From contig JAWLHJ010000003.1 in the NCBI GenBank assembly GCA_041690395.1, forward strand, positions 256,001-320,000: 64,000 nucleotides of DNA, given 5' to 3'. A program made the translations under genes and the position numbers. This document shows, piece by piece, positions 4,712-59,215 of this stretch (position 1 is the first letter of the stretch; each line of letters begins with the position of its first letter). Source of the DNA: Longimicrobiales bacterium (GTDB taxonomy: Bacteria > Gemmatimonadota > Gemmatimonadetes > Longimicrobiales > Gaopeijiaceae). The notes beneath the pieces were generated by a model that did not search any database, had not been told where the DNA came from, and was given only the letters and a program-made list of their open reading frames with translations.

Positions 4712-5752
4712 TCACCTCCCCCGCGAGTCTCCCACCGCCCGGAAGTACTCCCGGAGGTTGGACGGCCGATACGAGGGGTCTTCGTCCCATCGTCGAATGG
4801 CCGAGGGGTGCACCGTCTGTGATCGGTCCGGGCGAATGGGGCGCTCGTGGCGGGGCGCCAGCCGGTACACGCCCACTCTGGAATCGTGGGCCTTCCCGGT
4901 CGGCTCACCCTCCAACGGCCGCGCCGCGACGACCCCCGGGTCGAAATGGAGACCCGCCATCTCCGCGTTGTCCATCATCCACTGGAGCGTGATGTCCGAC
5001 AGGCCGTTGTCGACGTATCCGCCCCCGACGTCGCTGTGCACGCCGGGGAACCAGGTCTGGGAGACGAGCTGACGGGGCTTGGGCTTCTCGATCCAGAGCG
5101 TCGGCTCGAACGGCCCGCGGCGCTCGTCGATGGCGAGGGCGTGGAAGGCGTATTCCACGATGCCACTCAGCTCGCAGTCGTGGAAATCCTGGTTCCTCCG
5201 CGTGAGCCAGCGGAGTCCGGTGAGGGGGATGCCGAGGGCCCCCACGGTGTCCCAGACGCCGATGCACCGGATCGGGATCGACTCGGAGCCGCAGCACGAA
5301 TAGCTCGCGCGGAAGCTGGCGGGCTCGTCGTCGTCCGGGTGGGTCCCGGGGTCCTGGTACAGCTTCAGCGCATCGACGTACAGGCCGACATGCTTCCGGT
5401 CGAGAACCCCGCACTTGCGGATCATGCCGCCCAGGCTCCGGGCGGTGTAGGCACCCCGGCTGAACCCGAAGAGGTAGATCTCGTCGCCCGGCTCGTAGTT
5501 GGCGAGGAGGAACCGGTAGGCGTCGAAGATGTTGTCGCTCAACCCCCCGCCGAATGCCCCGCCGGTGAAGCGATCGAGGACGTTGCCGGTGCCGACGCCC
5601 TGATCGTAGAACACGATCTGCGACACCCCGTCCGGGTCACGCTTGGCGACACGGTACGCCAGCTTGACCACGTTCGTCGGGCAGAGTGTCCCGTTCTTCT
5701 GCTGGTCGGCCCGGTTCCAGGTCCCGTCGCAGCAGATGACGAGGCGCTTCAT
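4712..5752 (-). CDS. DUF2235 (Tle1-like alpha/beta hydrolase) domain protein
   Basis: MKRLVICCDGTWN, TNVVKL, YDQGVGT, FGFSRGAYTAR, GVWDTVG, HALAIDERR, WFPGVHSDVGGGY. Confidence 0.92.
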   Translation of the reverse strand: MKRLVICCDGTWNRADQQKNGTLCPTNVVKLAYRVAKRDPDGVSQIVFYDQGVGTGNVLDRFTGGAFGGGLSDNIFDAYRFLLANYEPGDEIYLFGFSRGAYTARSLGGMIRKCGVLDRKHVGLYVDALKLYQDPGTHPDDDEPASFRASYSCCGSESIPIRCIGVWDTVGALGIPLTGLRWLTRRNQDFHDCELSGIVEYAFHALAIDERRGPFEPTLWIEKPKPRQLVSQTWFPGVHSDVGGGYVDNGLSDITLQWMMDNAEMAGLHFDPGVVAARPLEGEPTGKAHDSRVGVYRLAPRHERPIRPDRSQTVHPSAIRRWDEDPSYRPSNLREYFRAVGDSRGR

Positions 5753-11658: not shown

Positions 11659-14103
11659 GTGGACGTCCTCATGAGAGACCTCCGCTCCGGCGCCCGGTCC
11701 CTGGCGCGGCAACCCGGATCGGCCATCATCTCCGTGCTCATCCTCGCCCTGGGCATCGGGCTCTCCACCTTCATGTTCTCGCTGGTGTACGGGGCCCTGC
11801 TTCGCGGGCTCGATGTCCCGGAGCCCGACCGGGTCGCGGTGCTGGCGCGGATCGATACGCGGGGCGGTGACGAGGATGCGGACCCCATGTCGGGCCAGGA
11901 CTTCCTGGACTTCCGCGAGCGATCGGCCTCGTACGAGGGGCTGCTGGGGTACTTCAGCGGCACCGTGAACCTCGCGGACGAGGCGGCTCCCCAGCGTTAC
12001 CAGGGCGCCTGGGTAACCGCGAACGCGTTCGACGTGCTCGAGGTGGAGCCGGCGCTCGGACGCACGTTCGTGGCGGGCGAGGACGAGCCGGGCCTGCCTC
12101 CGACCGTCGTGTTGGGCCATCACGTGTGGCAGGACCGGTATGGCAGCGATCCGGGCGTCATCGGCAGGTCGGTCCGGGTGAACGGCCGTCAGGGCACGAT
12201 CGTGGGCGTGATGCCGGAGGGCTTCAAGTGGCCCTCGAATCACGACCTGTGGATCACCGTGGATGACGACCCGAGGGCGGTCGCGCGTGGTGAGGGACCG
12301 TCCTATTGGGTGATGGGCCGATTGGCCGAAGGCGTCACCTGGGACCAGGCCAATCTCGAAGCGGCGCGCATCGCCGAGCAGCTCCTGGCCGAGTATCCGG
12401 AGGAGAGCGAAGGACTCTCGGCCCGGCTCATCACCGTGACCCAGCAACAGAACGGCGGCGAGATCACCCTGGTCTTCCTCGCGATGATGGTCGCCGTGAT
12501 CTGCGTCCTGCTGGTCGCGTGCGCGAACGTCGCCAACCTCCTCCTCGCTCGAGCGGCCACCCGCATGAGGGAGGCCGGCGTTCGGGTCGCCCTCGGGGCC
12601 GGGCGCGTCCGGGTGATGATGCCCTTCCTGGCCGAGGCGCTTCTGCTGGCCGGCGCGGGGGCCGTGTTGGGCACGCTCCTGGCCCACCTGGGCGTCGGGT
12701 GGTTCGACCGGGTCACCGACCCTGCCCTCACCGGCCGCCCGTATTTCGTGACGTTCGAAGTCGATCTCCCGGTGCTGCTGTTCGCCGTGGGCGTTACGGC
12801 GCTCACGGCCCTGATGGCGGGCGCCGCTCCTGCATTCCAGGTCTCACGCGCTGACGTGAACGAGATCCTGAAGGACGAGGGTCGGGGGTCGTCGAGCCTC
12901 CGCGCCGGACGCCTCGGCAAGATCCTGGTCACGGTGGAGGTGGCGTTCTCGGTGGCCCTCCTGGTCGGTGCCGGCCTCATGACCCGGAGCATGGTGCAGC
13001 TCGGCGCGTTCGAGCTTCCGTTCGAGGAGGAGGCCTACATCACTGCCCGGGTCGGCCTCTTCGAAGCCGACTACCCTGAGCGCGACGATCGCCAGGAGTT
13101 CTGGAGAGAGGTGGAGGATCGCGCCCGGGTGGCCCCGGGCGTCGCCGACGTCGCGCTCGCCAGCGGTGTTCCGGGCGCAGGCTCCGGCGGAGCCCGCATC
13201 GCGCTCGAGGGCGTCATCTATGTCGAGCCCGAGGATCAGCCCCTGGCGCACATAGACCGTGTCACGCCCGGGTATTTCCCGCTGCTGGACGCCGAGATCC
13301 TGGAGGGGACCGCGTTCAGTGACCAGCATGACATGGACGTGGATCCCGTGGCGGTGGTGAACCGATCGTTCGCAGAGCGGCACTGGCCGGACGCCAGCGC
13401 CCTGGGGCGGCGGTTCCGCGCCGGCGTGGCTGACACACTCCCGTGGACCACGGTCATCGGGGTGGTCGAAGACCTACAGATGCAGGGCTTCAGCCCTCCG
13501 GGTGCCCCCTCGGCGGTACCGGACGGCTTCTATGTTCCCGTGGCGCAGGCAGACCCCTCGTTCATGACCATCGTGGCCCGGGCCCTCCCCGGCACGGCGC
13601 CCGCGACGCTTGGTCCGGCGCTCCGGGAGGTGGTGCGGTCCGTGGATATCGACCTGCCGCTCTACGACGTGCGCACCGTGGCAGAGGCGGTGGACCGCAC
13701 GTCCTGGTTCTACCGGGTGTTCGGATCGGTGTTCGTCATCTTCGGCGCCGTCGCGCTCTTCATGGCCTCCGTTGGTCTGTACGGCGTCCTCGCCTTCTCG
13801 GTGAGCCGCCGCACCCAGGAGATGGGCATCCGGATGGCCCTGGGTGCGGGGCGCGCGCAGGTGATGCGCCTCGTGCTGCGTCAGGGGCTGACCCAGATCG
13901 GGATCGGCCTCGTCGTCGGACTGGCGATGGCGTTCGGCCTCTCGAGCCTCCTGGGCTTTCTGATGTTCGGGGTCGACCCGCGCGATCCGTTCGTGTTCGG
14001 GGGCGTCGTGCTGCTCACCGTTTCGGTGGGGATCGCGGCGAGCCTCCTCCCGGCTCGTCGGGCCACGGGCGTGCATCCCTCGGTGGCGCTGCGGTCCGAA
14101 TGA
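11659..14103 (+). CDS. ADOP-type duplicated ABC permease (MacB/FtsX family)
   Basis: [35 protein letters not shown] repeated twice, SRRTQEMGIRMALGA, C-terminal P-VALRSE. Confidence 0.93.
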   Translation: MDVLMRDLRSGARSLARQPGSAIISVLILALGIGLSTFMFSLVYGALLRGLDVPEPDRVAVLARIDTRGGDEDADPMSGQDFLDFRERSASYEGLLGYFSGTVNLADEAAPQRYQGAWVTANAFDVLEVEPALGRTFVAGEDEPGLPPTVVLGHHVWQDRYGSDPGVIGRSVRVNGRQGTIVGVMPEGFKWPSNHDLWITVDDDPRAVARGEGPSYWVMGRLAEGVTWDQANLEAARIAEQLLAEYPEESEGLSARLITVTQQQNGGEITLVFLAMMVAVICVLLVACANVANLLLARAATRMREAGVRVALGAGRVRVMMPFLAEALLLAGAGAVLGTLLAHLGVGWFDRVTDPALTGRPYFVTFEVDLPVLLFAVGVTALTALMAGAAPAFQVSRADVNEILKDEGRGSSSLRAGRLGKILVTVEVAFSVALLVGAGLMTRSMVQLGAFELPFEEEAYITARVGLFEADYPERDDRQEFWREVEDRARVAPGVADVALASGVPGAGSGGARIALEGVIYVEPEDQPLAHIDRVTPGYFPLLDAEILEGTAFSDQHDMDVDPVAVVNRSFAERHWPDASALGRRFRAGVADTLPWTTVIGVVEDLQMQGFSPPGAPSAVPDGFYVPVAQADPSFMTIVARALPGTAPATLGPALREVVRSVDIDLPLYDVRTVAEAVDRTSWFYRVFGSVFVIFGAVALFMASVGLYGVLAFSVSRRTQEMGIRMALGAGRAQVMRLVLRQGLTQIGIGLVVGLAMAFGLSSLLGFLMFGVDPRDPFVFGGVVLLTVSVGIAASLLPARRATGVHPSVALRSE

Positions 14104-14857
14104 CGCTGACGACCGCGGCCCCCACCGTGAGCACGATGAGGCGCACCACGACCTGCCGCCCGTTCGGCCCCACCACCACGGAGGCGACGTTCTCCAGAGC
14201 ATGGAGCAGCAGCGCTGACAGGATGCTCCGTCCGGTGTTCACGTAGATCCAGGCGAACAGCACGGCAAGCGGAATGCGTGTGATCATGTCCGACCAGAAG
14301 TCCCTGGACCATAGGCCAGCATCACTCTGGATCGTGCCTTCGATGAAGTAGAACGGCAGATGCCAGATGGTCCACGCGATCCCGACGAGAAGACCCGCCG
14401 TGAGAGCGGTCCTCCGGGCCAGAAGGCCGTCCAGGGCAAACCCTCGCCAGCCCAACTCCTCGGCAAACGCGGCGCCAACGGCAACGAAGAGGATCCCTCC
14501 TGTGAAGCCGACCTGACCGCCGGTCACCGGGGCCAGCCCCGTCGGTACCAGGGTGGCGGTGAGACTCGGTATGAAGGCCACTGCTACGATGGCCAGGTGC
14601 CAGGCCGGTGAGATGCGTCGGACGTCGCGAACTCGGTGCCAGAATGCGGCCGGGGATTCGCCGCCCCGACCGGTGTGCACGAGCAGGATGGCCATAAACG
14701 ACGGGCCGAACCCGCCGACGACGTAGAACAGCACGGTCGGAAACGCCGTCCACGGCCGGCCCGAGGCGATCGCGAGGCCCCAGAAGAACCAGCTCCAGGC
14801 GAACGTGAGTGCGAAGAACAGCCTCACCGGCTTGGCGGTGGCCTGGAGCAAGGCCAT
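14015..14857 (-). CDS. CPBP (Abi/CAAX) family intramembrane protease 1
   Basis: FFALTFAWSW, EELGWRGF, WTIWHLP, NTGRSILSALLLHALEN. Confidence 0.9.
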   Translation of the reverse strand: MALLQATAKPVRLFFALTFAWSWFFWGLAIASGRPWTAFPTVLFYVVGGFGPSFMAILLVHTGRGGESPAAFWHRVRDVRRISPAWHLAIVAVAFIPSLTATLVPTGLAPVTGGQVGFTGGILFVAVGAAFAEELGWRGFALDGLLARRTALTAGLLVGIAWTIWHLPFYFIEGTIQSDAGLWSRDFWSDMITRIPLAVLFAWIYVNTGRSILSALLLHALENVASVVVGPNGRQVVVRLIVLTVGAAVVSVIRTAAPPRDARPWPDEPGGGSPRSPPKR

Positions 14858-14859
14858 CG

Positions 14860-17800
14860 TCACCCCCCACCCTCGGGCACGAGCCAGGACACGCCGAACC
14901 CGATGCGCCAACCCCGGGAAAGCGCGGCGTTCTCGATCTGGGTACCGCGAGCGTCCTCCACCTCCAGGCGTCGCCGGAGGGACACTCCAACCGACGCCGA
15001 GACCCGGAGCCGCCGCCCGATGTCGTAGCGGATCACCGGGCCGACGTCGGCCAAGGAGTAGCGGACGAGGCCGCCCTCCAGCGTCCCCTCCCGTCCGAGG
15101 CCATAGACGTTGCCGTCGACCATGGCCTGCAATCCCGTGGCGATACGGTCGCTCGGTGTCCAGAAGACCTCGCCGTGAGCCGGAGCGAGGATATCCGCAT
15201 ATACCCGCTCCCCTCGCCACTGCAGGGCGAGCAAGGGCACCAGGCGCACTTCCCCGAAGGCGTTGGTGACGCTGACGCCGCCACCCCACGTCGGGCCGGA
15301 GGCCGCTTCGCGGGTCAGGAGCGCGGCGCCCTGAAGGGTGACATGATCGGAGCTCACGCCCCGGAAATCGCTGGCCATACCGGGGGCCAACACGAGCGAG
15401 AGGCGAGTCCGCTCGGAAAGCGTGAGGAGCGAGATGACCTCGAGATCGAGATCGTAGAGCGCCTCGACCCAGACGGGCTCGGCGGGATCGAGGGGCCGAG
15501 GCGCGACGCCGACGCGACTTCCGGAGATCCTGGGGACCACGAGCAGGCGCTCACCCTGGCACAGGAGAGGGACCAACACTGAGCCGCGAGCCATGGTGAC
15601 CCGGGCCTCCGTGGCCGGACCGGACAACGTGCGAGTGACGTCGGACGTGGGCAGCCAACTACCCTCGAGGTGGATCAGCGCCTCCTGTGCCCCGAGCCCT
15701 TGGGCACCTCCGGAGAGGATGAGGGCGACCAGCCCGGCCCCCACCACTCGCGACCTGGAACCGGGCATCAGCGCCCATGCGAGCAGTCCGACAGCGAAGA
15801 CGCCCACCGCCACCCCGAGCCACGCGGTGGTCGCCGGAAGGATGGAGAACAGGAAGAGGTAGTCCTGGACGGAAGCCCAGGCGACGGCCGCCAGCAGCCC
15901 CAGGCCGATGAGGACGGCAACGGCGCGGATCGCGAGCCCGGTCCGCGAGCCATTCCCGGCCGCCACACCCGTCCGGCGGCGCAGAACGGCGCGGGCGACG
16001 AGGATGGCCGCGGCGAAGAGGCAAGCGCCGATGATCAGCCAGGCCAGCGGAGCCGCCCACACGATGCGCGCCATCCGGACCGGCTCCACGCCGAGGCTCT
16101 CGGACCAGGCACGCAGGACGTGGCCGAACAGCGGCCAGGCCCGCTGACTGTTGGCCAGCAGCACGATGGCGTCTCCGGTCTCCGGCACGAGATGGACGTG
16201 GGTCATCCAACCGAACCCCTGCCCTCCGTGCCACACCGCCCGGCGGCCGTCGGAGAGGGTCTCGGTGAAATGCCCGAGGCCGTACCCCTCGGCGACGAAC
16301 CCGTAGAGTCCGCCCGGTCGAACCACGGACGTATGCAGGCGCGCGATGCTGGAGTCGTCGAGACGCTCGCGCACCCGGTTGCGTGTCGGCGCCATACTCG
16401 CCTCGGCGAACCGCCCCACGTCCTCGATGGTCGCGAACAGACCGCCGGATCCACGACCGGGGTAGACGTACGGCGCAACGGGACGGCCGCGCAGCGTATA
16501 GGCCGTGGGCACCCGGTCCCTGAGCGCCGGATTCCAGTCGAAGCTCGCCTCGACCATGCCGAGGGGATCCAGGACGTTCCGGTCCATCCAGCGTCCGAAG
16601 TCCTCACCGGTGACGTCCTGAACGAGCAGCTCGAGGAGGTTGTAGCCGGTGTCGGAATAGGAGAAGGCGTCACCGGGCGGGCCGACCATCGTCAGCTCGG
16701 CCTCCAGGCTCTCGGAGAGTGTCGGCACCGGCCCGTCGGGAGCATACCGCGCGTTGTAGTCACCGAGCCCCAGGCCCGCCGTGTGACTCAGAAGCTGACG
16801 CGGCGTGACCGACCCCGCATCCGGCGGAAGCGCCCGGTCGCGCAACTGCGCCTGGACCGGGGCGTCCGGATCGAGCAGGCCGGACTCGACCAGCTTCACG
16901 ACACCCCACGCCGTCACAGGCTTCGAGATGGACTCGACCCGGAACACGGCATCGGACGTCATGGGTCGCCCGGATGCCACGTCGGCCCACCCGAAAGACG
17001 CGAGCCACCGGACGTTTCCACCTCGGATGACCAGGACGTTCAAGCCGGGAACGTCGTGGGCCTCCATCCGGCCGGTGATCATGCTGGACAGCGCGGAGGC
17101 GGGAGCAGTGTCTCGGGTGGACATGAGTCTCGCCGCCTCGGCCACGGCCTCCTCCAACATGGTCCGACCCGATGTGCTCGTGACCGCCCCCGCCACCAGT
17201 ACGTCGGCCTCCGGACAGTAACGGACGAGTATCCCCCAGAACCCCCCATGGCCGTAGCACGCCATATCCGCATACTCGACCCGGGCCATCCCCATGCCGT
17301 ATCCGTGCGCCATGACCGCGAGGCTTTCCGGGGTCACATCCACCATCGCGTCCAACGTGGCCCGGTCCCGGAACACTCGTCCGTCGAAGAGCGCGCGGAA
17401 AAACGTGCTGACGTCTCCGAGGGTGGCGACGAGTCCACCGCCCCCGAAAAGGTCGAAGGAGGGATCGAAGCCGTAGGTATCGAGCGTGCCCAGATGCTGA
17501 TGCGCCCGCGGGGGAGCCCTCCGAGGCTCCGGCTCGACGGACTCCATCCACGTGGCGGTCAGGCCCAGGGCATCGAAAGCGAGAAGGCGGCGCAAGGCCG
17601 CGCCCAACGGCGATCCGGTCACCTGCTCGATGACCTCGCCCAGGAGGATGTACCCGGTGTCGCTGTAGTGGAACCGCTCCCCAGGGCCCCCGACGGGATC
17701 CCCGATCTCCATCGCAAGACGGAGCTGCTCCTCGCGGCTCCAGCGATGCCGCGGCTCGGCGAGAATCCGCTGGACGAAGACGTCCTCCGTGGCGTAGTCG

Positions 17801-18327
17801 AAGAGGCCCCCGGTGTGCCGGAGCAGCATGGACAGCGTGATGGCGGCGGGGTCGTACCCATCCGCCTCCAACGTAAGGACCGTGGACGGGAGCAGGTGCT
17901 CAACAATGGGATCTCCCAGGTCGACGACGCCGTCCTCCGCGAGCCGGAGCACCGCGGCGGCTACGTAGGTCTTGGTGAGGCTCGCGAGCCTGAGGGCGTG
18001 GCCGGAACGAAGCTCCGATCCCGACGCGGGGTCCGCGACGCCCACGGCCCCTTCCCACATGAAGCGTCTCGCTGCCCCCTCCACCCGGAGCAGCGCGCCC
18101 GGCACATCCGGGGTAGCCCCGAACGCCGAATCGAGGAGAGCCGCGAGCGGGTCGTCGGGCTGGACCGGCACAGCACGGTCGGGTGGGCCCGGGCCGCAGG
18201 CCACCGACCCGAGGCTCACCGCTAGTACCAGGAACGCTCGCGCCGAACGCCGGTTGCTGCGCCGGTACGAGGGGCCGTATGCTCGTGGCGCCGCGCCATC
18301 GCATGCCATCGCTCGAACCCCGCTCAT
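14860..18327 (-). CDS. Multidomain fusion: lipoprotein serine hydrolase (beta-lactamase family) x2 + TM helices + C-terminal outer-membrane beta-barrel-like domain
   Basis: Two SxxK sets (ASLTK/YSD/HGG and ESISK/YSD/HGG), LLRHTGG and LLSHTAG; three hydrophobic helices; MPGSRSRVVGAGLVALILSGGAQGLGAQE; beta-strand region ending IGFGVSW; start uncertain (18327 or 18387). Confidence 0.8.
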   Translation of the reverse strand: MSGVRAMACDGAAPRAYGPSYRRSNRRSARAFLVLAVSLGSVACGPGPPDRAVPVQPDDPLAALLDSAFGATPDVPGALLRVEGAARRFMWEGAVGVADPASGSELRSGHALRLASLTKTYVAAAVLRLAEDGVVDLGDPIVEHLLPSTVLTLEADGYDPAAITLSMLLRHTGGLFDYATEDVFVQRILAEPRHRWSREEQLRLAMEIGDPVGGPGERFHYSDTGYILLGEVIEQVTGSPLGAALRRLLAFDALGLTATWMESVEPEPRRAPPRAHQHLGTLDTYGFDPSFDLFGGGGLVATLGDVSTFFRALFDGRVFRDRATLDAMVDVTPESLAVMAHGYGMGMARVEYADMACYGHGGFWGILVRYCPEADVLVAGAVTSTSGRTMLEEAVAEAARLMSTRDTAPASALSSMITGRMEAHDVPGLNVLVIRGGNVRWLASFGWADVASGRPMTSDAVFRVESISKPVTAWGVVKLVESGLLDPDAPVQAQLRDRALPPDAGSVTPRQLLSHTAGLGLGDYNARYAPDGPVPTLSESLEAELTMVGPPGDAFSYSDTGYNLLELLVQDVTGEDFGRWMDRNVLDPLGMVEASFDWNPALRDRVPTAYTLRGRPVAPYVYPGRGSGGLFATIEDVGRFAEASMAPTRNRVRERLDDSSIARLHTSVVRPGGLYGFVAEGYGLGHFTETLSDGRRAVWHGGQGFGWMTHVHLVPETGDAIVLLANSQRAWPLFGHVLRAWSESLGVEPVRMARIVWAAPLAWLIIGACLFAAAILVARAVLRRRTGVAAGNGSRTGLAIRAVAVLIGLGLLAAVAWASVQDYLFLFSILPATTAWLGVAVGVFAVGLLAWALMPGSRSRVVGAGLVALILSGGAQGLGAQEALIHLEGSWLPTSDVTRTLSGPATEARVTMARGSVLVPLLCQGERLLVVPRISGSRVGVAPRPLDPAEPVWVEALYDLDLEVISLLTLSERTRLSLVLAPGMASDFRGVSSDHVTLQGAALLTREAASGPTWGGGVSVTNAFGEVRLVPLLALQWRGERVYADILAPAHGEVFWTPSDRIATGLQAMVDGNVYGLGREGTLEGGLVRYSLADVGPVIRYDIGRRLRVSASVGVSLRRRLEVEDARGTQIENAALSRGWRIGFGVSWLVPEGGG

Positions 18328-18363
18328 TCGACCACCATCCTCGCGCAGGCAAAGGTCACGCTC

Positions 18364-19218
18364 ATGGAACCGTCGCCCGGAGCCCACGCCGCGGGGGATC
18401 TGAGCACCCGGTCACTCGTGCCCTTCTTCGCGATCTCGTTCGGGCTGTCGTGGGGCGTCCTTGGCCTGCTGCTCGTGTTTCCGGACGCGTTGGAGGCCGC
18501 CTTCGGTCCGCTGGGTCTCACGAATCCCCTCTTCATCCTTGCGGTGTACGCCCCCGGCATCGCCGGCGTGGGACTCGTGGCTGCTCGGGGCGGTGGGGCC
18601 GCGGTGCGGCGGTATCTGGGACGGCTCCTATTGTGGCGCATGTCCTGGGCGTGGTGGGTGCTGCTCGCCGTGGGGATGCCGGCGGTCTTCTTCGCAGGCG
18701 CCGCTCTCAAGGGCCCCATCGTGCTCCCGTCCTTCGCGTCGGGGGGAGCGCTCATGGGCGCGATGGCGGCGGCGCTTCTCATTGGCCCCATGGAGGAGCT
18801 CGGCTGGCGGGGCGTTGCGCTTCCCCTGCTCCAGCGGACCATGGCTCCCGTATGGGCCGGGCTGGCCCTCGGGGTCGTCTGGGCCCTCTGGCACGTGCCC
18901 GCCTTCGCCCTCAGCGGCACACCCCAGAGCTCGTGGTCGCTCCCTGTGTTCTTCATTGGTGTGGTCTCCCTCTCGATGATCCTGACACCAATGTTCAACG
19001 TGTCCGGCGGAAGCACCCTCGTCGCCGCCTTGTTCCACTTCCAGGCCAATGGGCCGTTGTGGCCCGATGCGCAGCCCTGGGACACGCCGTTGTTCCTCCT
19101 CCTCGCCATCGCCGTGGTCTGGGTGAGACGCGAAACGATGTTCCGTCGGGAGGGCGCCACGACCCGGGTCATCCCCCGAACCGAGCCCCTTGTCATCGCC
19201 GTGGCCTCGAAGCGATAG
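18364..19218 (+). CDS. CPBP family intramembrane protease 2
   Basis: FFAISFGLSW, EELGWRGVALP, WALWHVP, FNVSGGSTLVAALFHFQAN. Confidence 0.92.
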   Translation: MEPSPGAHAAGDLSTRSLVPFFAISFGLSWGVLGLLLVFPDALEAAFGPLGLTNPLFILAVYAPGIAGVGLVAARGGGAAVRRYLGRLLLWRMSWAWWVLLAVGMPAVFFAGAALKGPIVLPSFASGGALMGAMAAALLIGPMEELGWRGVALPLLQRTMAPVWAGLALGVVWALWHVPAFALSGTPQSSWSLPVFFIGVVSLSMILTPMFNVSGGSTLVAALFHFQANGPLWPDAQPWDTPLFLLLAIAVVWVRRETMFRREGATTRVIPRTEPLVIAVASKR

Positions 19219-20017
19219 CGGCGACCACGCCCCAAAGTGTGAGCGTGAAGAGGCCATACCAGACGAAGTGCTCGGCAGGCGCCAACGTGGGCACCAAGAT
19301 CGCCTGAGAACCCGTGAAGCTCGCGTGCATCAATTGGGAGACCAGCAGGCTTTCGTCCGCTTGCTGATAGACCCGGACCATGAGCACGCGGAATGCCGTC
19401 AGCGCCGCGACCCAGAGCGCGATTCTGAGGAGCCATAGGCTGCCGAACTGCACGGAGGCACCCCAGTAGTCCGCCAAGCCGTGCCAAACACCCCAGATGG
19501 CGCCCAGGAGGAGCCCCGCCGTGAAGGTCGAGTGGCGGCGGAGCAGTCTCGGCAGAGCGAAACCCGTCCATCCGATCTCCTCCAGGAGCCCGGCGCCAAG
19601 GCCGAACACGACTCCGAAGGCCAAGATCGGCCAGAGATCATCGGTGGCGATCATGGCTGGCACGAACGCAGACGATGCGAGCGAGAGACCTCCGAGGATC
19701 ACCACGATCAGAACGGGAGTCGTCAGTAGGGCGACGGCGTACCATCGGGCAGGCACTCGCCATCTGCGCTGCCGATCCCACAGATCGCGGAGTCCCTCTC
19801 TTCCGCCGGCAACCGCGGTCATGAGCACCCCGGCCAACGCCGGGCCGGTGAGCATGGCCCCGAAGACGGGAAGAAGCTGCCATTGGGCTGGCGTCTCACC
19901 TTCGAGCAACGCTCGGGGTCCGACCACGAGGAGAACGGCACCCCACGCCACAAGAAACACGAAAGCGAAGTAGATTGCCGTCGTGCTGGCCTTCGACCGC
20001 TCCACCAGTGCGTTCAC
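19193..20017 (-). CDS. CPBP family intramembrane protease 3
   Basis: EEIGWTGFALP, WGVWH, SLLVSQLMHASF; GTG start at 20017 after GGAGG. Confidence 0.9.
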   Translation of the reverse strand: MNALVERSKASTTAIYFAFVFLVAWGAVLLVVGPRALLEGETPAQWQLLPVFGAMLTGPALAGVLMTAVAGGREGLRDLWDRQRRWRVPARWYAVALLTTPVLIVVILGGLSLASSAFVPAMIATDDLWPILAFGVVFGLGAGLLEEIGWTGFALPRLLRRHSTFTAGLLLGAIWGVWHGLADYWGASVQFGSLWLLRIALWVAALTAFRVLMVRVYQQADESLLVSQLMHASFTGSQAILVPTLAPAEHFVWYGLFTLTLWGVVAAIASRPRR

Positions 20018-20133
20018 GGGATCCTCCGCCTTGCCCCTCACTGACGTAATCTGGCCGGGAGCGGACGATCCACGCCGTCGGGGACGGTCCGCCCGCACAC
20101 GTAGGGAATTCCCCCATCCGAATCGGAGTACGC

Positions 20134-35473: not shown

Positions 35474-37366
<1,893 letters not shown>

Positions 37367-37546: not shown

Positions 37547-37731
37547 GCGTGGCAGAAACATGCCCAAGCGGACGACCTCGATCGGCGATTGGCATGTTGA
37601 CCACCCTATATGGCAGAAAGGTCACAAGGCCGCCGCCGAGATTCCGGCCCATGGCATGTTGACCGCCCTATGCGGCAGAAACATCACGCGCGGTCGGCGC
37701 ACCTGCCCGCCGTGTCACGTTTCTGCCACGC
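37547..37731. repeat. Three ~61-62 bp degenerate palindromic units (REP/BIME-like)
   Basis: GGCAGAAA at 37551, 37612, 37674; TGGCATGTTGACCRCCCTATRYGGCAGAAA at 37590 and 37652; outer arms GCGTGGCAGAAAC / GTTTCTGCCACGC. Confidence 0.7.
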
Positions 37732-51659: not shown

Positions 51660-53339
51660 TCAGAGATAGACGATCAGGCTCGCCGCGAGAATGATCGCCA
51701 CCCACAGCACCATGCTCCCGACGGGCCAGGAACGCGCGAGCGGCCCGACCGGCCCATGCGTACGGGCCAGGCCCGCGATGAGCGCGCGCACTCGCCCGAG
51801 ACCGGCCGTGGCCAGATGCTCCCGGGCCGCAGTGGTCCGCACCGCGAACTCACGTCCGACGGCGGTCCCGAAGCGCCGGTAGAACCAGTCCCAGTCCAGC
51901 GAAATGGTGAGCGTCCGCTTCATCAGGGGCAACATCACGAAGAACGCGAGGCCCGCGAAGAGCAGAAGCTGGAACTGGCTTACCAGGTGGCTCGCGGTGT
52001 ATGGCTCGTACTCCACCGGATACGGCAGAATCGCGTAGAGCGGCCCCGGCAGCACGCCGAGCCCGATGCAGAACGCGCTGAACAGCCACATGGGCCAGAC
52101 CATGTTCTTCGGCGGATCCGACGGGCGGAGCCCGGAGTCCTTCTGGAAGAACACGAACCACGGGAACTTGATGCCCGCGTGGAGGAAGACGCCCGCGGAC
52201 GCCGCCGTAAGCACGAACCAGGCGATCGCGATGTGCTCGTGGGCCGCCGCGTCGTTGATCATCGACTTCGAGATGAAGCCCGAAGTGAACGGGAACGACG
52301 AGATGGCGAGGGCGCCGATGATCCCGGCCGTCGCGGTCTGCGGCATGGTCCGGAAGAGACCGCCGAGGTCCGTACACTTCCGCTTGCCCGTCATGTACAG
52401 CACGCTGCCGGCCGACATGAGTAGGAGCGCCTTGTAGATGATGTGGCTGAAGGCGTGCGCGGTCGCGCCGTTCAGCGCCTCCTCCGTCCCGATCCCGATG
52501 CCGGTCACCATGAACCCGACCTGGTTCACGATCGAGTACGCCAGGATACGCCGCATGTCGTTCTCGAGCAGCGCGTAGACGATCCCGTACACGGCCATGT
52601 AGAGACCGACGTAGATGAGGACCTGCGTACCCGGGAACGCCATCATGAGCGTGAAGACGGCGGTCTTCGTCGTGAACGCCGACAGGAAGACCATGCCGCT
52701 CGGGCTCGCCTCCGGATACGCGTCCGCGATCCAGGCCGAGAGCGGCGGCGCGCCGGCGTTGATCAGGAAGCCGATCAGGATCATCACGTTCGCGAAGCTG
52801 TCGAGCTGCATCGGCTCGAACGCCACCGATCCGGTCTGCGCGATGTGCGCGACCACGCCGAACATGAGAACGACGCCGCCGAACACGTGCACGAGCAGAT
52901 AGCGCATGCTCGCCGCGTACGCCTCCGACTGGTCCGACGCCCACAGGACCAGCGTCGATCCGATCGCCATCAGCTCCCAGAACACGAACATCGTGATCAG
53001 GTCGCCCGCGAACGTCACGCCCACCGCGCTGCCCGCGTAGGCGAAGGCCGCGGCGAGCTCGAGGACCCGCGCCTGGCGGATGGCGAACACCCCGCCCGCG
53101 AACGCCATGATGGCGAAGACGGTGGCGAACACCCGCCCGGTCGCCGTCCAATGGACGGGCATGAGGTCGTAGTCGAGGAACGGCACGGTGACCGTGTGCC
53201 CCTCGGGGACCATCCAGACGGCGGCGAGGGTCAGGAGCGGCAGCCCCATCACCACCAGGTTGCGCAGGCCGCCCCGGGTCGCCGGAATCAGGAACGCTCC
53301 GGCGATGAGCAACAGGCCGGGAGGGAACGACACGGTCAT
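51660..53339 (-). CDS. mrpD: Mrp/Mnh Na+/H+ antiporter subunit D (large paralogue)
   Basis: FVFWELMA, WIADAYPEASPSG-VFLSAFTTK, ENDMRRILAYSIVNQVG, GFISK. Confidence 0.9.
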   Translation of the reverse strand: MTVSFPPGLLLIAGAFLIPATRGGLRNLVVMGLPLLTLAAVWMVPEGHTVTVPFLDYDLMPVHWTATGRVFATVFAIMAFAGGVFAIRQARVLELAAAFAYAGSAVGVTFAGDLITMFVFWELMAIGSTLVLWASDQSEAYAASMRYLLVHVFGGVVLMFGVVAHIAQTGSVAFEPMQLDSFANVMILIGFLINAGAPPLSAWIADAYPEASPSGMVFLSAFTTKTAVFTLMMAFPGTQVLIYVGLYMAVYGIVYALLENDMRRILAYSIVNQVGFMVTGIGIGTEEALNGATAHAFSHIIYKALLLMSAGSVLYMTGKRKCTDLGGLFRTMPQTATAGIIGALAISSFPFTSGFISKSMINDAAAHEHIAIAWFVLTAASAGVFLHAGIKFPWFVFFQKDSGLRPSDPPKNMVWPMWLFSAFCIGLGVLPGPLYAILPYPVEYEPYTASHLVSQFQLLLFAGLAFFVMLPLMKRTLTISLDWDWFYRRFGTAVGREFAVRTTAAREHLATAGLGRVRALIAGLARTHGPVGPLARSWPVGSMVLWVAIILAASLIVYL

Positions 53340-53680
53340 CGGTCGCCTCCGGTCCGGCCGTCGGTGTCCGGGAAGCCGTTGGCCGCCCCGTCGTAGTACA
53401 CGTCCTTCCGCTTCAGGAAGATGCCCAGGAGCTTCGCGCCGACGACCATCGCCACGCACGTGACGAAGCCGTACCAGGCATAGAAGCCGAACGTGGCGTC
53501 GATACCGAAGTACTCGTAGTGGTCGACGAACAGGTCACCGGCGACGATCAGCGCCAGGACCACGGACGACCCGATCCACAGCTTGCGGATCGTTTCGGGC
53601 TTCACGAGCCAGTGCTCGGGCTCGTCGGGCGCCTTGCGCGGCGGATTTCCGGGCTCGGTCATGCGGCGTGCTTCACTCAT
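53336..53680 (-). CDS. Small membrane protein embedded in the Mrp operon
   Basis: HWLVKPETIRKLW, FGFYAWYGFVTCV, LKRKDVYYD; overlaps both neighbours by 4 nt. Confidence 0.75.
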   Translation of the reverse strand: MSEARRMTEPGNPPRKAPDEPEHWLVKPETIRKLWIGSSVVLALIVAGDLFVDHYEYFGIDATFGFYAWYGFVTCVAMVVGAKLLGIFLKRKDVYYDGAANGFPDTDGRTGGDR

Positions 53681-55191
53681 GGAGCGCCTCCGACGAGGGC
53701 CTTGGCCAGCGCGAGCGGCACTCCGGGGAAGAAGAAGAGGAGAACGGTCAGCCCAGCGGTGATGGTGAGCGCCACGACGATCGGCCAGGGCGCCTCACCA
53801 TGGTCGTGCGCGCCGTGATCGTCACCGCCTCCGCCGACGTACGCCGGAGCCTGGGCCTCCTCCGCCTGGAAGAAGGCCATGTAGATGATCGGCACGAAGT
53901 ACGCGGCGTTCAGCAGCGTCGACGCGATCAGGATCGCGAGCACGACCATGTGCTGGGACTCGAAGGCCCCCATCATCATGTACCACTTGCTGATGAAGCC
54001 CCCAGCGGGCGGCAGTCCGATCATGGACAACGCGCCCACCGCGAAGGCGCCCATGGTCCAGGGCATCCGGCGGCCGATGCCCCTGAGCTGGCTGATCTCG
54101 GTCTTGTGCGCGGCCGTGTAGATGGAGCCCGCCGCGAAGAACAGGGTGATCTTGCCGAATGCGTGCGCCACGATGTGGAGCGCCGCACCCGCGGCGGCCA
54201 TCGGCACGAACATGGCTGCCGCCAGCACCACGTAGCTCAACTGGCTGACCGTGGAGTACGCGAGCATGCGCTTCAGGTTACCCCGCGCCATCAGGATCCG
54301 GAGCGCCACGATGGAGCCCGCGAGGACCGTGAACCCCGAGGCGTAAACCAGCCACCCGGTTCCGGCCTCAGCCGCCAGGAAGTCGAGGCCGAAGACGTAG
54401 ACGACGACCTTCACGACGCTGAACACACCGGCCTTCACGACGGCCACGGCGTGGAGGAGCGCCGAAACCGGCGTCGGCGCGACCATCGCGGCCGGGAGCC
54501 AGCGATGGACCGGCATGACCGCCGCCTTACCGATGCCGAACATGAAGAGCGCGAGCAGGACGCCCACCAGCGGACCCTCGACGTGCCCTGCGAGAATGCC
54601 ACCCTGCTGGAAGTCCACCGACCCGGTGAGCACGTACGTCCAGATGATGCCCAGGAGGAGCAGTCCGACCGACGTCGTGATCAGGATGCCGAGATACACC
54701 CGGCCCGCCTTCATGGCGTCCTCGGTGCCCTTGTGGGTCACGAGCGGGTACGTCGAGACGGTGAGGATCTCGTAGAAGACGAAGAGCGTGACCAGGTTGC
54801 CGGAGAAGGCGATGCCGATGGCGCTCGCGATCGCCACCGCGAAGCAGACGTAGAAGCGGGTCTGCTTCTTCTCGTGGTTCCCCCGCATGTACCCGATGGA
54901 GTACAGCGAGTTGACCGGCCACAGGAGCGCCGCCACGCCGGCGAAGATCATGCCCAGCGGCTCGACTTCGAGGATGAGGCTGATCCCCGGAACCATCTCG
55001 ACCAGCGTGACCTGGGGACGGCCGCCCGCGAGAACTTCGGGCAGGATCGACCCGACGATGACGAGAAGGATGCCCGCGGTGACCAGCGTGACCGTCTCGC
55101 GGAGATTCGGGCTCGCGCCGGTGAGGGCGATTCCGAACGCCCCGACTGTCGGGACGACGAGCGCGAGCACCATCAGCATCTCGGTGCTCAC
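53677..55191 (-). CDS. mrpD: Mrp/Mnh antiporter subunit D/A-like
   Basis: FVFYEILT, PVHRWLPAAMVAPTPVSALLHAVAVVKAG, LKRMLAYSTVSQL, HAFGKITLFF. Confidence 0.9.
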   Translation of the reverse strand: MSTEMLMVLALVVPTVGAFGIALTGASPNLRETVTLVTAGILLVIVGSILPEVLAGGRPQVTLVEMVPGISLILEVEPLGMIFAGVAALLWPVNSLYSIGYMRGNHEKKQTRFYVCFAVAIASAIGIAFSGNLVTLFVFYEILTVSTYPLVTHKGTEDAMKAGRVYLGILITTSVGLLLLGIIWTYVLTGSVDFQQGGILAGHVEGPLVGVLLALFMFGIGKAAVMPVHRWLPAAMVAPTPVSALLHAVAVVKAGVFSVVKVVVYVFGLDFLAAEAGTGWLVYASGFTVLAGSIVALRILMARGNLKRMLAYSTVSQLSYVVLAAAMFVPMAAAGAALHIVAHAFGKITLFFAAGSIYTAAHKTEISQLRGIGRRMPWTMGAFAVGALSMIGLPPAGGFISKWYMMMGAFESQHMVVLAILIASTLLNAAYFVPIIYMAFFQAEEAQAPAYVGGGGDDHGAHDHGEAPWPIVVALTITAGLTVLLFFFPGVPLALAKALVGGAP

Positions 55192-56666
55192 GGCGTGCCT
55201 CCGAGCAGCATGCGCGCGGCCTGGCCCGCGACCCCGGACGTGAAGGTCGCGTCGATGCCGAAGTAGAAGTTGGCCACGATCAACGCCCAGGTCGGGAGGA
55301 GCAGGCCGAGCGGAGCTTCCTGAACCGTATCGTCATCACCGGCGAAGTCCTTGAAGTACGCGGCCTCCACGACCTTCCAGATATAGACGACCGCCATCAG
55401 CGACGTGATGAGCACCAGCACCGCGACCGGCCACCAGCCGAGCTCGAGCGCGCCCGAGATCAGGTACCACTTGCTGATGAACCCGACCGTGGCGGGAACG
55501 CCGATGAGGCTCAGGCCGGCCAGCACGAATGAGGCCATGGTCCACGGCATCTTACGGCCGAGTCCCTGCATGGCCTCGATGTGGACGGACCCGATGCGGT
55601 AGAAGACGGCGCCGAGCGCCATGAAGAGCGCGCCCTTCATGAGGGCGTGGTTGAACATGTGCACGATGGCCGCCGTGAGGCCTGTCACCGAGGCCATGCT
55701 CACGCCGAGGATCATGTACCCGATCTGCGCGACCGACGAATAGGCCAGCATGCGCTTCACGTTGACCTGGAAGATCGCGACCAGCGACATGCTGAAGATC
55801 GCGACCAGCGCGAGCGGCATGAACACCAGGTCCACCTGCATCCGGTCGAACGCGAAGGCCGCGCCGAACACGGTGAAGAAGAACCGGAGCATCATGTAGA
55901 CCGCGACCTTGGTCGCGGTCGCCGCGATGAACGCCGTGACGGCCGAAGGCGCGTACGTGTATGCGTTCGGCAGCCACAGATGGAGCGGGAAGAGCGCCAG
56001 CTTCAGGCTGAACCCGACGGCCAGGAACGCGAAGGCGACCGGAATCGTACGCTGGTCCATGACCGCGGGTAGCCGCTCGGCCAGGTCGACCATGTTCAGC
56101 GTGCCGGTCATCGCGTACATGAGCCCGATGCCGATCACGATGAAGGTCGCGCCGACCGACCCCATGATGAGGTACTGGTACGAGGACACAAGGGCCCGCC
56201 GGTCCTGCCCCATCGCGATGAGCGCGTAGGCGGAGAGCGACGAGATCTCGAGGAAGACGAAGACGTTGAACACGTCGCCGGTCACCGAGATGCCGAGGAG
56301 CCCGGTCAGGCTCAGGATCCACGCGGCGTAGAAGAGCGGAATGCGGTCGCTCTCGACCTCGCGCTCGACGCTCTGTCTCGCATAGAGCACCGCGACCGCG
56401 CCGATGGCCGCGACGATGAACGCCACGAAAGCGCTCACCGCGTCGATGCGGTACTCGATACCGATCGGTGGAGCCCAGGACCCCATCTCGTAGCGCAGGA
56501 CCCGGCCGCCCTGCACCTGCGCGAGCAGCCCACCGGCAGCGTAGAGCGCCCAGAAAGAAGCCGCCACCGCGACCAGCCACGAGAGCGTGGGCCGGTTCAG
56601 GAGCGCGGCCAGCGGAGCCGCGATGAGCGGGACCGCGACGAGAAGTACCGGAAGGTGCTCGATCAC
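55188..56666 (-). CDS. mrpD: Mrp/Mnh antiporter subunit D
   Basis: WAPPIGIE, GDVFNVFVFLEISS, LFPLHLWLPNAY, KRMLAYSSVAQIGY, GFISKW. Confidence 0.93.
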   Translation of the reverse strand: MIEHLPVLLVAVPLIAAPLAALLNRPTLSWLVAVAASFWALYAAGGLLAQVQGGRVLRYEMGSWAPPIGIEYRIDAVSAFVAFIVAAIGAVAVLYARQSVEREVESDRIPLFYAAWILSLTGLLGISVTGDVFNVFVFLEISSLSAYALIAMGQDRRALVSSYQYLIMGSVGATFIVIGIGLMYAMTGTLNMVDLAERLPAVMDQRTIPVAFAFLAVGFSLKLALFPLHLWLPNAYTYAPSAVTAFIAATATKVAVYMMLRFFFTVFGAAFAFDRMQVDLVFMPLALVAIFSMSLVAIFQVNVKRMLAYSSVAQIGYMILGVSMASVTGLTAAIVHMFNHALMKGALFMALGAVFYRIGSVHIEAMQGLGRKMPWTMASFVLAGLSLIGVPATVGFISKWYLISGALELGWWPVAVLVLITSLMAVVYIWKVVEAAYFKDFAGDDDTVQEAPLGLLLPTWALIVANFYFGIDATFTSGVAGQAARMLLGGTP

Positions 56667-57016
56667 TGGCTCTCGTCCTCGATCTCGGCTTCTTCGATGG
56701 TTCCGTAGGCCTCTTTGATCCTCACCGTGAGCGCGAGGCCGACCGCGGTCGTGGCGACGCCGACGACGATGGCGGTCAGGATGAGGACGTGCGGTATCGG
56801 ATTGGAGTAGACCACCCCTTCCGCCCCCGAGATCAGGTACGGGGGGGTCCCGCCGGTGATCTTGCCCAGGCTGATGTAGAGGATGAAGACCGACGCCTGG
56901 AAGATGTTCAGGCCGATCAGCTTCTTCACCAGGTTCCCGCGGGCGATCAGGATGTAGAAACCGGTCATCATCAGGAAGACGACCGCCCAGTAGTTGAAGA
57001 GCCCCAACGCTTCCAT
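56663..57016 (-). CDS. mrpC: Mrp antiporter subunit C
   Basis: NLVKKLIGLNI, NPIPHVLILTAIVVG. Confidence 0.93.
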   Translation of the reverse strand: MEALGLFNYWAVVFLMMTGFYILIARGNLVKKLIGLNIFQASVFILYISLGKITGGTPPYLISGAEGVVYSNPIPHVLILTAIVVGVATTAVGLALTVRIKEAYGTIEEAEIEDESQ

Positions 57017-57017
57017 A

Positions 57018-57437
57018 TCAGCTCTTCCTCCGGCCGGCGAACGCGTAGAACAGGCCCACCATGACCCCGAAGACCGTGGTGATCACCCCTGCTTCGATCA
57101 TCAGGATGCCGTAGTGCTGCCCGGACGCCGGGTCGGGTCCGAGCACGTTGTAGCCCAGGAAGTTTTCGCCGAGGGCCAGCGCCAGGAATCCCGTCCCCGC
57201 GAAGATCATGACCCCCAGCGCGCCGCACACGTACGGGACGGAGGGGGGCAGGACGCGCAGAACGTTGGCGAGGCCGTATACGAGGGCGTAGAGGATGAAC
57301 GCCGAAGCCAGGATCACCCCGGCCTGGAAGCCGCCGCCGGGGCCGTAGTCGCCGTGGAACTGGACGTAGAAGGCGAAGACCATGATGAACGGAGTCAGGA
57401 TCTTCGAGCCGATCCTGAGGATCACGCGATCATCCAT
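57018..57437 (-). CDS. mrpB: Mrp antiporter subunit B
   Basis: HGDYGPGGGFQAGV. Confidence 0.92.
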   Translation of the reverse strand: MDDRVILRIGSKILTPFIMVFAFYVQFHGDYGPGGGFQAGVILASAFILYALVYGLANVLRVLPPSVPYVCGALGVMIFAGTGFLALALGENFLGYNVLGPDPASGQHYGILMIEAGVITTVFGVMVGLFYAFAGRRKS

Positions 57438-58062
57438 GGTCGGCCTCCTTCTTCTTCCTCGCCGGGCTGGCGCCGCCGGCTCGCCGGATCGCGTCACGGC
57501 CCAGGGAGCCGGGCCGCATGTCCACCGACCGGTGACCGTTCTGCCCGCCTCGCGCCAGCAGCAGGAGCACGCCGACGAGCGCGGTGAAGACCACGGCCGC
57601 CTCACCCATGGTGTCGAATCCGCGGTACGAGCCGAGCACCACGGTCACGATGTTCGGGATGTGCGTGTCGTCATAGGACTCTTCCAGGTAGTACGGCGCG
57701 ACGTGCTGATGAACGGGATTGTCGGCCGCGCCGAACGTCGGCATGTCCAGCGACCCGTAGATCAGGATCCCACCGACCACGAGCGTGACGAAGAGAGGCA
57801 GGATGGGCCGATGCTTCGGCTTCGCCTCCTCGCTTCCGACGAGGGCGAGCGTCCCCAGCATGAGGATCGTGGAGACCCCGGCGCCGACGGCGGCCTCCGT
57901 GAAGGCCACGTCCATTGCGTCCATGGTCACGAACAGGCCCGCGGAAAGCAGGCTGTAGATGCCCATGAGCATGGTGGCGGCGAACAGGTTCCGGATACGA
58001 ACCACCGCGATGGCGGTCACGCCGAGGAGCACCAGCAGCACGATATCGACGACGGTGATCAC
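57430..58062 (-). CDS. Mrp subunit (DUF4040 / MrpA C-terminal-like)
   Basis: DVAFTEAAVGAG, PNIVTVVLGSYRGFDTMGE; GTG start 58062. Confidence 0.88.
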   Translation of the reverse strand: MITVVDIVLLVLLGVTAIAVVRIRNLFAATMLMGIYSLLSAGLFVTMDAMDVAFTEAAVGAGVSTILMLGTLALVGSEEAKPKHRPILPLFVTLVVGGILIYGSLDMPTFGAADNPVHQHVAPYYLEESYDDTHIPNIVTVVLGSYRGFDTMGEAAVVFTALVGVLLLLARGGQNGHRSVDMRPGSLGRDAIRRAGGASPARKKKEADHG

Positions 58063-58382
58063 GAGGCGGCCTCCCCCTGCTCGTCGGGTGCCGAGCGACT
58101 CATCCCGAGAATCGCGGCCCGGGCGAGCGCGTGGCTCGCTATGGGGCTGGTGAAGAGCAGGAACGCGTAGATGAAGAGGAGCCGGACAAGTACCATCCAG
58201 TCGGTGGTCTGGAGCGCCATGCCGAGCAAGAGGAAGCCCGCCCCCATGGTGTCCGTCATGCCGGCCGGATGGAGTCGGGCGAGGATGTCGGGCATCCTCA
58301 GGATGCCGACGGTCCCGACGATCATGAAGAACAGCCCCGAGACGATGAAGACCCAGCTCAGGATATCGAGGATCGGCTCCAT
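58059..58382 (-). CDS. mrpG: Mrp antiporter subunit G
   Basis: GILRMPDILARLH..DT-G, TSPIASHALARA. Confidence 0.93.
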   Translation of the reverse strand: MEPILDILSWVFIVSGLFFMIVGTVGILRMPDILARLHPAGMTDTMGAGFLLLGMALQTTDWMVLVRLLFIYAFLLFTSPIASHALARAAILGMSRSAPDEQGEAAS

Positions 58383-58669
58383 CAGGCCTCCCCTCCCCCG
58401 AGCGGCTCGCGCCCACGCCCGAGATCCCGGAACTCGAAGAACTTCAGCACGGTGATGGTCCCGATGAAGTTGATGAGCGCGTAGACGAGCGCGAGATCGA
58501 GGAATTCGGGGCGGCCGTTCAGGTATCCGAGCACCGCGATCAGCAGCACGGTCTTGGTGCCGAAGATGTTCACGGCGAGCACACGGTCGTATACGGAGGG
58601 CCCGACGAGCGCGCGCACGAGCGCCAAGCTCATGCTGACGAGGACTCCGGCGGTGGCGACGAAGAACAT
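58382..58669 (-). CDS. mrpF: Mrp antiporter subunit F
   Basis: RALVGPSVYDRVLA, DLALVYALINFIGT. Confidence 0.93.
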   Translation of the reverse strand: MFFVATAGVLVSMSLALVRALVGPSVYDRVLAVNIFGTKTVLLIAVLGYLNGRPEFLDLALVYALINFIGTITVLKFFEFRDLGRGREPLGGGEA

Positions 58670-59142: not shown

Positions 59143-59215
59143 GCTTGACTCCCTGATGAATGTTCCAGGCTGACGGGCGTGCGCGCCCCGCATAGGCGAA
59201 AAATCAGCGCGGAAT

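Follow-up and report, generated by a model that had tools for sequence, protein, structure and literature searches.

A conserved reading frame joins a ClbP-like membrane hydrolase to a predicted outer-membrane barrel through an internal signal peptide-like segment

Inner- and outer-membrane proteins normally lie in separate bacterial genes because their targeting differs. An open reading frame (ORF) on the minus strand of a Longimicrobiales bacterium contig, in which a lipoprotein with two serine hydrolase domains and three transmembrane (TM) helices runs on into a beta-barrel, raises the question of how such a chain could be sorted. The window we analyzed is the 64,000-nucleotide stretch at positions 256,001 to 320,000 of contig C3 (JAWLHJ010000003.1) in genome G000 (GCA_041690395.1; 4.33 Mb, 7 contigs, completeness score 98%), and the ORF occupies its positions 14,860 to 18,327. 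A first-pass annotation, made from the letters of the window, had proposed a processed polyprotein or an in-frame internal start, either of them coupling an outer-membrane channel to tandem peptidases, and had called for structure prediction and for a search for the same architecture. We consider it likely that signal peptidase I cuts the one chain in two, giving a ClbP-like hydrolase in the inner membrane and a predicted barrel in the outer membrane.

The frame is uninterrupted over its 1155 codons, and its third-position GC content stays between 0.76 and 0.92 in each of 23 successive 50-codon blocks, also across the two junctions, which bears out the single stop-free frame first described; all the motifs listed at that stage, including the lipobox, the two SxxK hydrolases and the three TM helices, are present in the translated sequence. 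Whether the joins could be an artefact was judged from independent assemblies that keep the same frame. When residues 700–1155 were compared with proteins of 635–2022 amino acids (aa), 11 matches were found among 7995 candidates scored, and 10 of these 11 long matches, the query included, hold PF00144 and PF19783 in one chain, at 41–89% identity. Two hydrolases and a barrel are joined in P0001, P0003, P0004 and P0005 (1155–1190 aa), one hydrolase and a barrel in P0006–P0010 (684–812 aa), and P0011 has two hydrolases without a barrel. P0003 is 1155 aa long and 86% identical over residues 700–1155, while the P0004 cluster comprises 10 separately deposited members, all of 1190 aa (from JGI, ENA and Logan), nine of which have identical junction segments. 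No stop interrupts the junction in the DNA of L002, L019 and L024, and in that of G088 the junction is likewise open. The search for the same architecture thus returned joined hydrolase–barrel chains from independent assemblies, and these comparisons confirm that the fusion frame is genuine and not an assembly artefact.

The C-terminal domain scores 53.8–57.6 bits against PF19783 (DUF6268; gathering cut-off 22.8), and DUF6268 is found in 21–96% of the members of the nearest Atlas clusters. Structure prediction agrees with the barrel-like character first noted: an AlphaFold2 model from 124 sequences (predicted local distance difference test score (pLDDT) 94.3, predicted template modelling score 0.89) is a closed antiparallel barrel with an even number of strands, 14 in all, each long. 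Its best fold matches are CymA (Z 14.5, root-mean-square deviation (rmsd) 4.0, 226 aligned), OmpG (Z 14.3, rmsd 4.0, 203 aligned), Omp33 (Z 14.0, rmsd 3.0, 180 aligned) and FadL (Z 13.1, rmsd 5.0, 249 aligned). Foldseek matches likewise include outer-membrane proteins, and autotransporters come further down in the fold ranking (Z 9.4–10.3). By sequence, the barrel profile retrieved 4rl8 alone from the PDB, at an E value of 0.13. DUF6268 thereby gains a predicted fold, a 14-stranded barrel like those of CymA, OmpG and FadL, and this shared fold gives the barrel no function by itself. The fused barrel is the sole DUF6268-like match in a family-profile search of G000. A search with the region from TM1 to the barrel gave 396 matches, and most of the 150 listed are barrels that stand alone, about 270–340 aa in length.

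Enzyme and barrel are separated by three segments of strong hydrophobicity (aa 752–857) and by a fourth, less hydrophobic one (aa 861–879). Arg is abundant in both of the loops inferred to be cytoplasmic but not in the TM2–TM3 loop. A search with the C-terminus of hydrolase 2 and the TM region found 192 matches; among the 120 listed, most are 420–530 aa long and many are named from Rhodobacteraceae. Stand-alone hydrolase–3TM relatives end 34–48 aa past the YLF motif, mostly in a basic tail. Basic loops are cytoplasmic according to the positive-inside rule, so an N-terminal signal, three helices and a basic tail together put the end of TM3 in the cytoplasm; the C-terminus of the stand-alone relatives is therefore predicted to be cytoplasmic, and the fourth helix of the fused chain should run in-to-out. 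The basic tails and Arg-rich loops back the orientation that had been proposed for this segment. Strand 1 of the barrel model starts at residue 3 after Q881, the residue that follows the signal-like helix, and because so few residues could not span the periplasm, one chain would not fit into both membranes and a working barrel would have to be released or made separately. The difficulty of reconciling anchor and barrel in one mature chain, raised at first pass, is thus reinforced by the model.

In Bradyrhizobium japonicum, the exported part of the FbcH cytochrome b–c1 precursor studied by Thöny-Meyer and colleagues is reportedly released by cleavage at an internal signal. The same kind of layout is predicted here, with n-, h- and c-regions behind a TM helix that returns to the cytoplasm. 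The segment that follows ATG 15768, likened earlier to a signal peptide, does contain a basic n-region, an h-region and an Ala/Gly-Gln cut motif, and a second candidate cut, GGA/Q876, lies five residues upstream of LGA/Q881. In all 13 fused proteins the −1 residue is Ala or Gly, the +1 residue is Gln, and at least one Lys or Arg precedes the h-region; Pro is found at −4 to −7 in 9 of the 13, and the hydrophobic core spans 11 residues with a mean hydropathy of 1.7–3.05 (n = 13). Outside the cut motif, the linkers of nine lineage representatives share 17% identity and consist of 37% Ala/Gly and 0.4% Gln. Since 76 of 123 stand-alone barrels have a similar small-x-Ala/Gly-Gln motif within residues 13–60, the internal signal was probably inherited together with the barrel. 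A genome-wide fusion-screen rule recovered the focal ORF and two others among 3558 ORFs, namely one cytochrome b–c fusion and one evident false match. At G000:C1:169338-171200 (minus strand), a cytochrome b-like protein is fused, as judged by eye, to a c-type domain with two CxxCH motifs, and AYA/Q directly follows its last TM helix in an FbcH-like layout.

Pfam finds two Beta-lactamase (PF00144) stretches (345.7 bits) and DUF6268 in the 1155-aa chain, and both hydrolase domains show the beta-lactamase fold, SxxK motif, catalytic Tyr and motif-3 strand of the S12/PF00144 family. A signal ending in Cys at the lipobox position also occurs in P0003, P0004, P0005 and P0011. The Ser, Lys, Tyr and HGG of hydrolase 2 are invariant across 111 aligned rows. 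The closest solved structures are the Streptomyces/Bacillus-type S12 D-peptidases 3wwx and 4y7p for hydrolase 1, and 2qmi and the esterase IS11 for hydrolase 2. The structures nearest to the two domains include D-peptidases, esterases and amidases. "Peptidase" is a likely description of both domains, in a family to which esterases and amidases also belong. Hydrolase 2 has no signal of its own, as first noted, for no hydrophobic stretch follows M402 (nt 17124). A separate start for hydrolase 2 at 17124 was considered and rejected: the ribosome site is moderate (−7.2), but the Met is absent from P0003, P0004 and P0005 and no signal follows. Identity with AmpC, the class C beta-lactamase, was also set aside, as both domains have YSD and HGG where AmpC has YxN as motif 2 and KTG as motif 3 (excerpt of PMC10936184).

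Hydrolase 2 and its helices resemble ClbP, in which, according to an excerpt of PMC9889268, a periplasmic S12 domain leads into three TM helices and the conserved linker between TM2 and TM3 touches the acyl chain of the substrate. Our module has the same layout, with a conserved linker at the same place; it matches ClbP in sequence over module residues 10–416 (E 4e-17), and its model (mean pLDDT 92.4; three long helices at the C-terminus plus one in the linker) was aligned by Foldseek to full-length ClbP over 469–482 columns at an rmsd of 8.8–9.6. Unlike ClbP, the chain also holds an extra hydrolase, an internal signal and a barrel. ClbP-type enzymes have Ser or Thr at position 188, the position of the YxN Asn (same excerpt), where hydrolase 2 has Asp559 of its YSD motif. 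N331 and W466 are further residues that are strictly conserved in ClbP-type enzymes. No nonribosomal peptide synthetase (NRPS) or polyketide synthase families were found in the 51 of 62 listed window ORFs that were scanned, the remaining 11 being mostly short. We therefore rejected a ClbP-type prodrug peptidase, given the residue at position 188 and the lack of an NRPS cluster among the scanned ORFs. Because the ClbP linker contacts an acyl chain and the matching loop is strongly conserved here, the analogy hints at an acylated or membrane-bound substrate.

Hydrolase and barrel histories were compared using FastTree and a quick IQ-TREE run. The hydrolase tree holds 127 hydrolase–TM rows and leaves out P0006, which nearly duplicates P0007 but has an internal gap, and P0053, in which the motif was unmatched. 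FastTree places every one of the 14 long-tailed rows within a single clade of 18 rows (support 95), and the long tail requires 5 changes on the hydrolase tree against a shuffled mean of 13.5; one of the long-tailed rows, P0094, breaks off within the signal. The barrel tree repeats most of the hydrolase subgroups, and its fused clade is shared by stand-alone barrels P0130–P0132. One fusion followed by several losses is probably the simplest reading of the agreeing trees.

These observations fit a simple scheme. A hydrolase–3TM gene would have run, most likely once, into a DUF6268 gene that kept its signal. In the resulting chain, the lipoprotein signal would take both hydrolase domains to the periplasm, with lipidation of Cys44, and TM1, TM2 and TM3 would insert out-in, in-out and out-in. 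The basic stretch past TM3 would stay in the cytoplasm and, with the next hydrophobic helix, restart Sec export. Signal peptidase I would then cut at LGA/Q881 or GGA/Q876, the released barrel would pass to the BAM machinery, and the hydrolase would keep the spent signal as its fourth helix. Such a fusion may have persisted because the cut restores two ordinary proteins.

A working barrel could also arise without any cut, by translation from an in-frame internal start at ATG 15768 with an ordinary N-terminal signal, leaving the barrel of the long chain incidental or degraded. This ATG lies at the very point at which a signal peptide would start; MPTRRRRW occurs at the matching place in P0007 and a GTG before KSRTSR in L024, a quarter of the likely true starts in the genome have ribosome sites as weak as −2.4 kcal/mol, and stand-alone P0130–P0132 belong to the clade of the fused barrels. 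The site at 15768, however, has exactly this weak value, which 65% of 3000 internal ATGs equal or better, compared with −12.0 kcal/mol for the ORF start and −12.5 for the next gene. A Met precedes the basic stretch in only 5 of the 13 fused proteins, G088 has no ATG, GTG or TTG from the end of TM3 to the basic residues, and an ATG or GTG would fall within 15 codons by chance in 58% of cases. Moreover, a long product with the cut motif would persist even given an internal start. With so weak a site and a Met in so few relatives, the internal start offered at first pass as an alternative is not favored, and we judge it unlikely.

If instead the chain were uncut, or cut by another protease, the fourth helix would anchor the chain permanently, and the beta domain would be an appendage that is tethered in the periplasm or has no function. 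Repeated loss or shortening of the barrel inside the clade would suit such an appendage, and the fourth helix is modelled with low confidence (pLDDT about 55 or below) in a region that few alignment rows covered. Yet the predicted structure of the domain is a complete transmembrane barrel, all of its best matches are outer-membrane proteins, and the Ala/Gly-Gln motif is kept in an otherwise divergent linker. The barrel is also conserved as strongly as the hydrolase against L024, with dN/dS of 0.23 for the barrel and 0.22 for hydrolase 2 (0.42 and 0.30 against L019), ratios that are rough, and to that extent tell against us, because dS is near saturation (1.0–2.5); by these codon comparisons the barrel is under purifying selection. 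We find an uncut chain improbable, somewhat more so than the internal start. Least credible of all, to the point of being nearly negligible, is an assembly error or a recent stop-codon loss that joined three genes in one genome: the exact 1155-aa protein does form a cluster of one, but the same joins recur in P0003, the ten members of P0004, P0005 and the two-part P0007–P0010, from four data sources. The processed polyprotein of the first-pass annotation therefore holds in so far as conservation, topology and the barrel model support it, whereas the cleavage itself we infer.

Several points weigh against the scheme that we favor. The cut sites were picked by eye with the barrel alignment as a guide, and the motif was tested with a rule made by hand; the count of 13 in 13 overstates independence, for the nine lineages are related. 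The −3 residue is Leu in the window protein and Met in P0007, both less typical. Most fused barrels, and several stand-alone members, extend several residues beyond the last aromatic residue. The fusion is rare, being found in 2 of the 401 genomes of the class searched: five match the module strongly, of which G000 and G088 are fused and G431, G523 and G551 stop after TM3. It also appears to be often lost, since four stand-alone hydrolases (P0011, P0013, P0016 and P0047) are nested in the fused clade and barrels are short or missing in P0017, P0094 and P0097. No barrel was found downstream of the hydrolase–3TM gene in the DNA examined of G431, G523 and G551, and a barrel search in 60 close relatives found none (0/60).

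Other arrangements of these parts were seen in single records. P0002 (1062 aa) consists of a CAAX protease, a lipoprotein-type signal (GSVAC), hydrolase 2, three TM helices, an internal signal and a barrel, and its CAAX part resembles, by eye, the window gene at 19196–20098; it is possibly a three-part polyprotein or a deletion product. P0263, on a 2.1-kb contig, has a VanZ membrane domain followed by a signal-like segment ending in ASA and by a distantly related DUF6268 barrel that lies outside the fused clade, possibly an independent fusion of the same design. At L002:6560-6670 the fused barrel stops after about 90 residues, codon bias falls and no frame continues it, which suggests a rearrangement or mis-assembly. 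In L020 (G431), just past 6225 on the minus strand, two small ORFs that look antitoxin/PIN-domain-like by eye follow a two-hydrolase gene.

Most likely, the enzyme would hydrolyze small peptides, amides or esters, perhaps acylated ones, in the envelope, and the barrel would let small solutes through. The proposal that channel and tandem peptidases are functionally coupled fares poorly: hydrolase 1 occurs only in part of the fused proteins, each partner is also encoded on its own, and within the fused clade the barrel was apparently lost or shortened several times. Beside 10 stand-alone barrel loci (with short flanks for seven) there was no S12 hydrolase and no shared gene family, a further point against us; as stand-alone barrels show no hydrolase partner, a coupling of channel and enzyme is unsupported. 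Loci related to the window ORF also hold hydrolases. A self-sorting polyprotein, in which signal peptidase II at the lipobox and signal peptidase I at the internal site would yield, one to one, a doubly anchored tandem hydrolase and a 14-stranded channel feeding it substrate, strikes us as doubtful. If it were true, internal signals would be general plug-in joints for envelope genes, at which P0002 and P0263 hint.

Features of the polyprotein ORF and of the gene next to it (window positions, strand).
Feature	Positions	Strand	Details
Whole ORF, 1155 aa	14860..18327	−	lipoprotein signal, hydrolase 1, hydrolase 2, three TM helices, internal signal peptide, barrel
N-terminal lipoprotein signal	18196..18327	−	lipobox GSVA/C44, aa 40–44, at 18196–18210
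Hydrolase 1, S12/PF00144	17125..18198	−	S116-L-T-K (S116, K119), Y221-S-D, H360-G-G
Hydrolase 2, S12/PF00144, without own signal	16078..17124	−	S466-I-S-K (S466, K469), Y557-S-D, H700-G-G
TM1, predicted out-to-in	15970..16077	−	basic loop RRRTG…SRTG after it
TM2, predicted in-to-out	15871..15945	−	hydropathy, model, sequence
TM2–TM3 loop QDYLFLFSILP, short helix, predicted periplasmic, conserved	15829..15870	−	alignment, model
TM3, predicted out-to-in	15769..15828	−	stand-alone relatives stop a few residues after
Internal signal-peptide-like segment, aa 854–880	15688..15768	−	basic n-region, h-region, predicted cut LGA/Q881
DUF6268 domain, 275 aa, predicted 14-stranded outer-membrane beta-barrel	14863..15687	−	Pfam, AlphaFold2, fold matches
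CAAX (Rce1-like) protease gene downstream of the ORF	14015..14857	−	start 2 nt past the ORF stop, strong ribosome site (−12.5 kcal/mol)

The form of the ORF on record has 1155 aa and starts at ATG 18327, where the ribosome site is very strong (−12.0 kcal/mol); the ORF lister's longer version begins at GTG 18387. The CAAX protease gene immediately downstream is likely co-transcribed with the polyprotein ORF. Between 14015 and 21003 the ORF is flanked by four Rce1-like CAAX protease genes in alternating orientation, with other hydrolases around. A scan of 13500–19500 for promoters and terminators gave no signal above shuffles, and no relevant repeats or cassette sites were found near the ORF within the window.

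Elsewhere in the window, a D-Ala-D-Ala ligase C-terminal domain is fused to a SET domain at 416-1912 (−), a Tle1-like phospholipase catalytic domain (297.8 bits) is encoded at 4715-5752 (−), and a Mrp/Mbh-type multisubunit antiporter operon occupies 51663-59761 (−). Two intergenic 43-nt copies with 81% identity, 62 nt apart, at 37583-37687 are possible regulator sites, and an array of 9-nt tandem repeats lies within an ABC transporter gene at 36553-36660. TatC of G000 has a frame of 295 codons, so there is no LptD fusion in that genome.

If the chain is processed as we propose, Sec would be able to insert a polytopic protein and then pass a barrel on to the outer-membrane pathway, signal peptidase I would cut far inside such chains, and annotation tools that check N-terminal signals alone would miss outer-membrane proteins at the ends of membrane enzymes. 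The locus also draws attention to a ClbP-like hydrolase family outside NRPS clusters that is unstudied. In the literature searched, with most subscription papers and supplements outside its scope, we found no description of this fusion or of any inner/outer-membrane polyprotein. The reference list of PMC2120157 includes a title on an engineered cassette for signal peptide cleavage, functional in vivo, and an excerpt of PMC11573778 names DUF6268 in an unrelated context.

Among known systems, stand-alone DUF6268 proteins share the Pfam match above cut-off and a similar signal motif near the start of the barrel, whereas here domain and signal stand at the C-terminus of a membrane enzyme. MipA and MipB of Pseudomonas aeruginosa, an outer-membrane barrel and a beta-lactamase-fold lipoprotein encoded by two genes and involved in polymyxin sensing (excerpt of PMC10936184), offer a similar genetic pairing. 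They differ in that MipA/OmpV has 12 strands against the 14 predicted for DUF6268, that MipB lacks both SxxK and a three-helix anchor where our chain has two intact SxxK motifs and three TM helices, and that a single gene is used here. Autotransporters, whose barrels have 12 strands, also join an N-terminal hydrolase to a C-terminal beta-barrel in one chain, as in EstA, but in our protein three TM helices and a signal stand between the enzyme and a barrel of 14 predicted strands. We rejected a type Va autotransporter, in which the passenger would be joined directly to the barrel, because inner-membrane helices intervene. For a fusion that is conserved and probably processed, FbcH is the nearest precedent, and an excerpt of PMC4986455 mentions its cytochrome b–c1 fusion. 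In both cases one gene encodes a polytopic inner-membrane part, an internal signal and an exported protein, although cleavage in our chain is inferred; the products of FbcH share one inner-membrane complex, whereas the second product here is a predicted outer-membrane barrel with no known complex.

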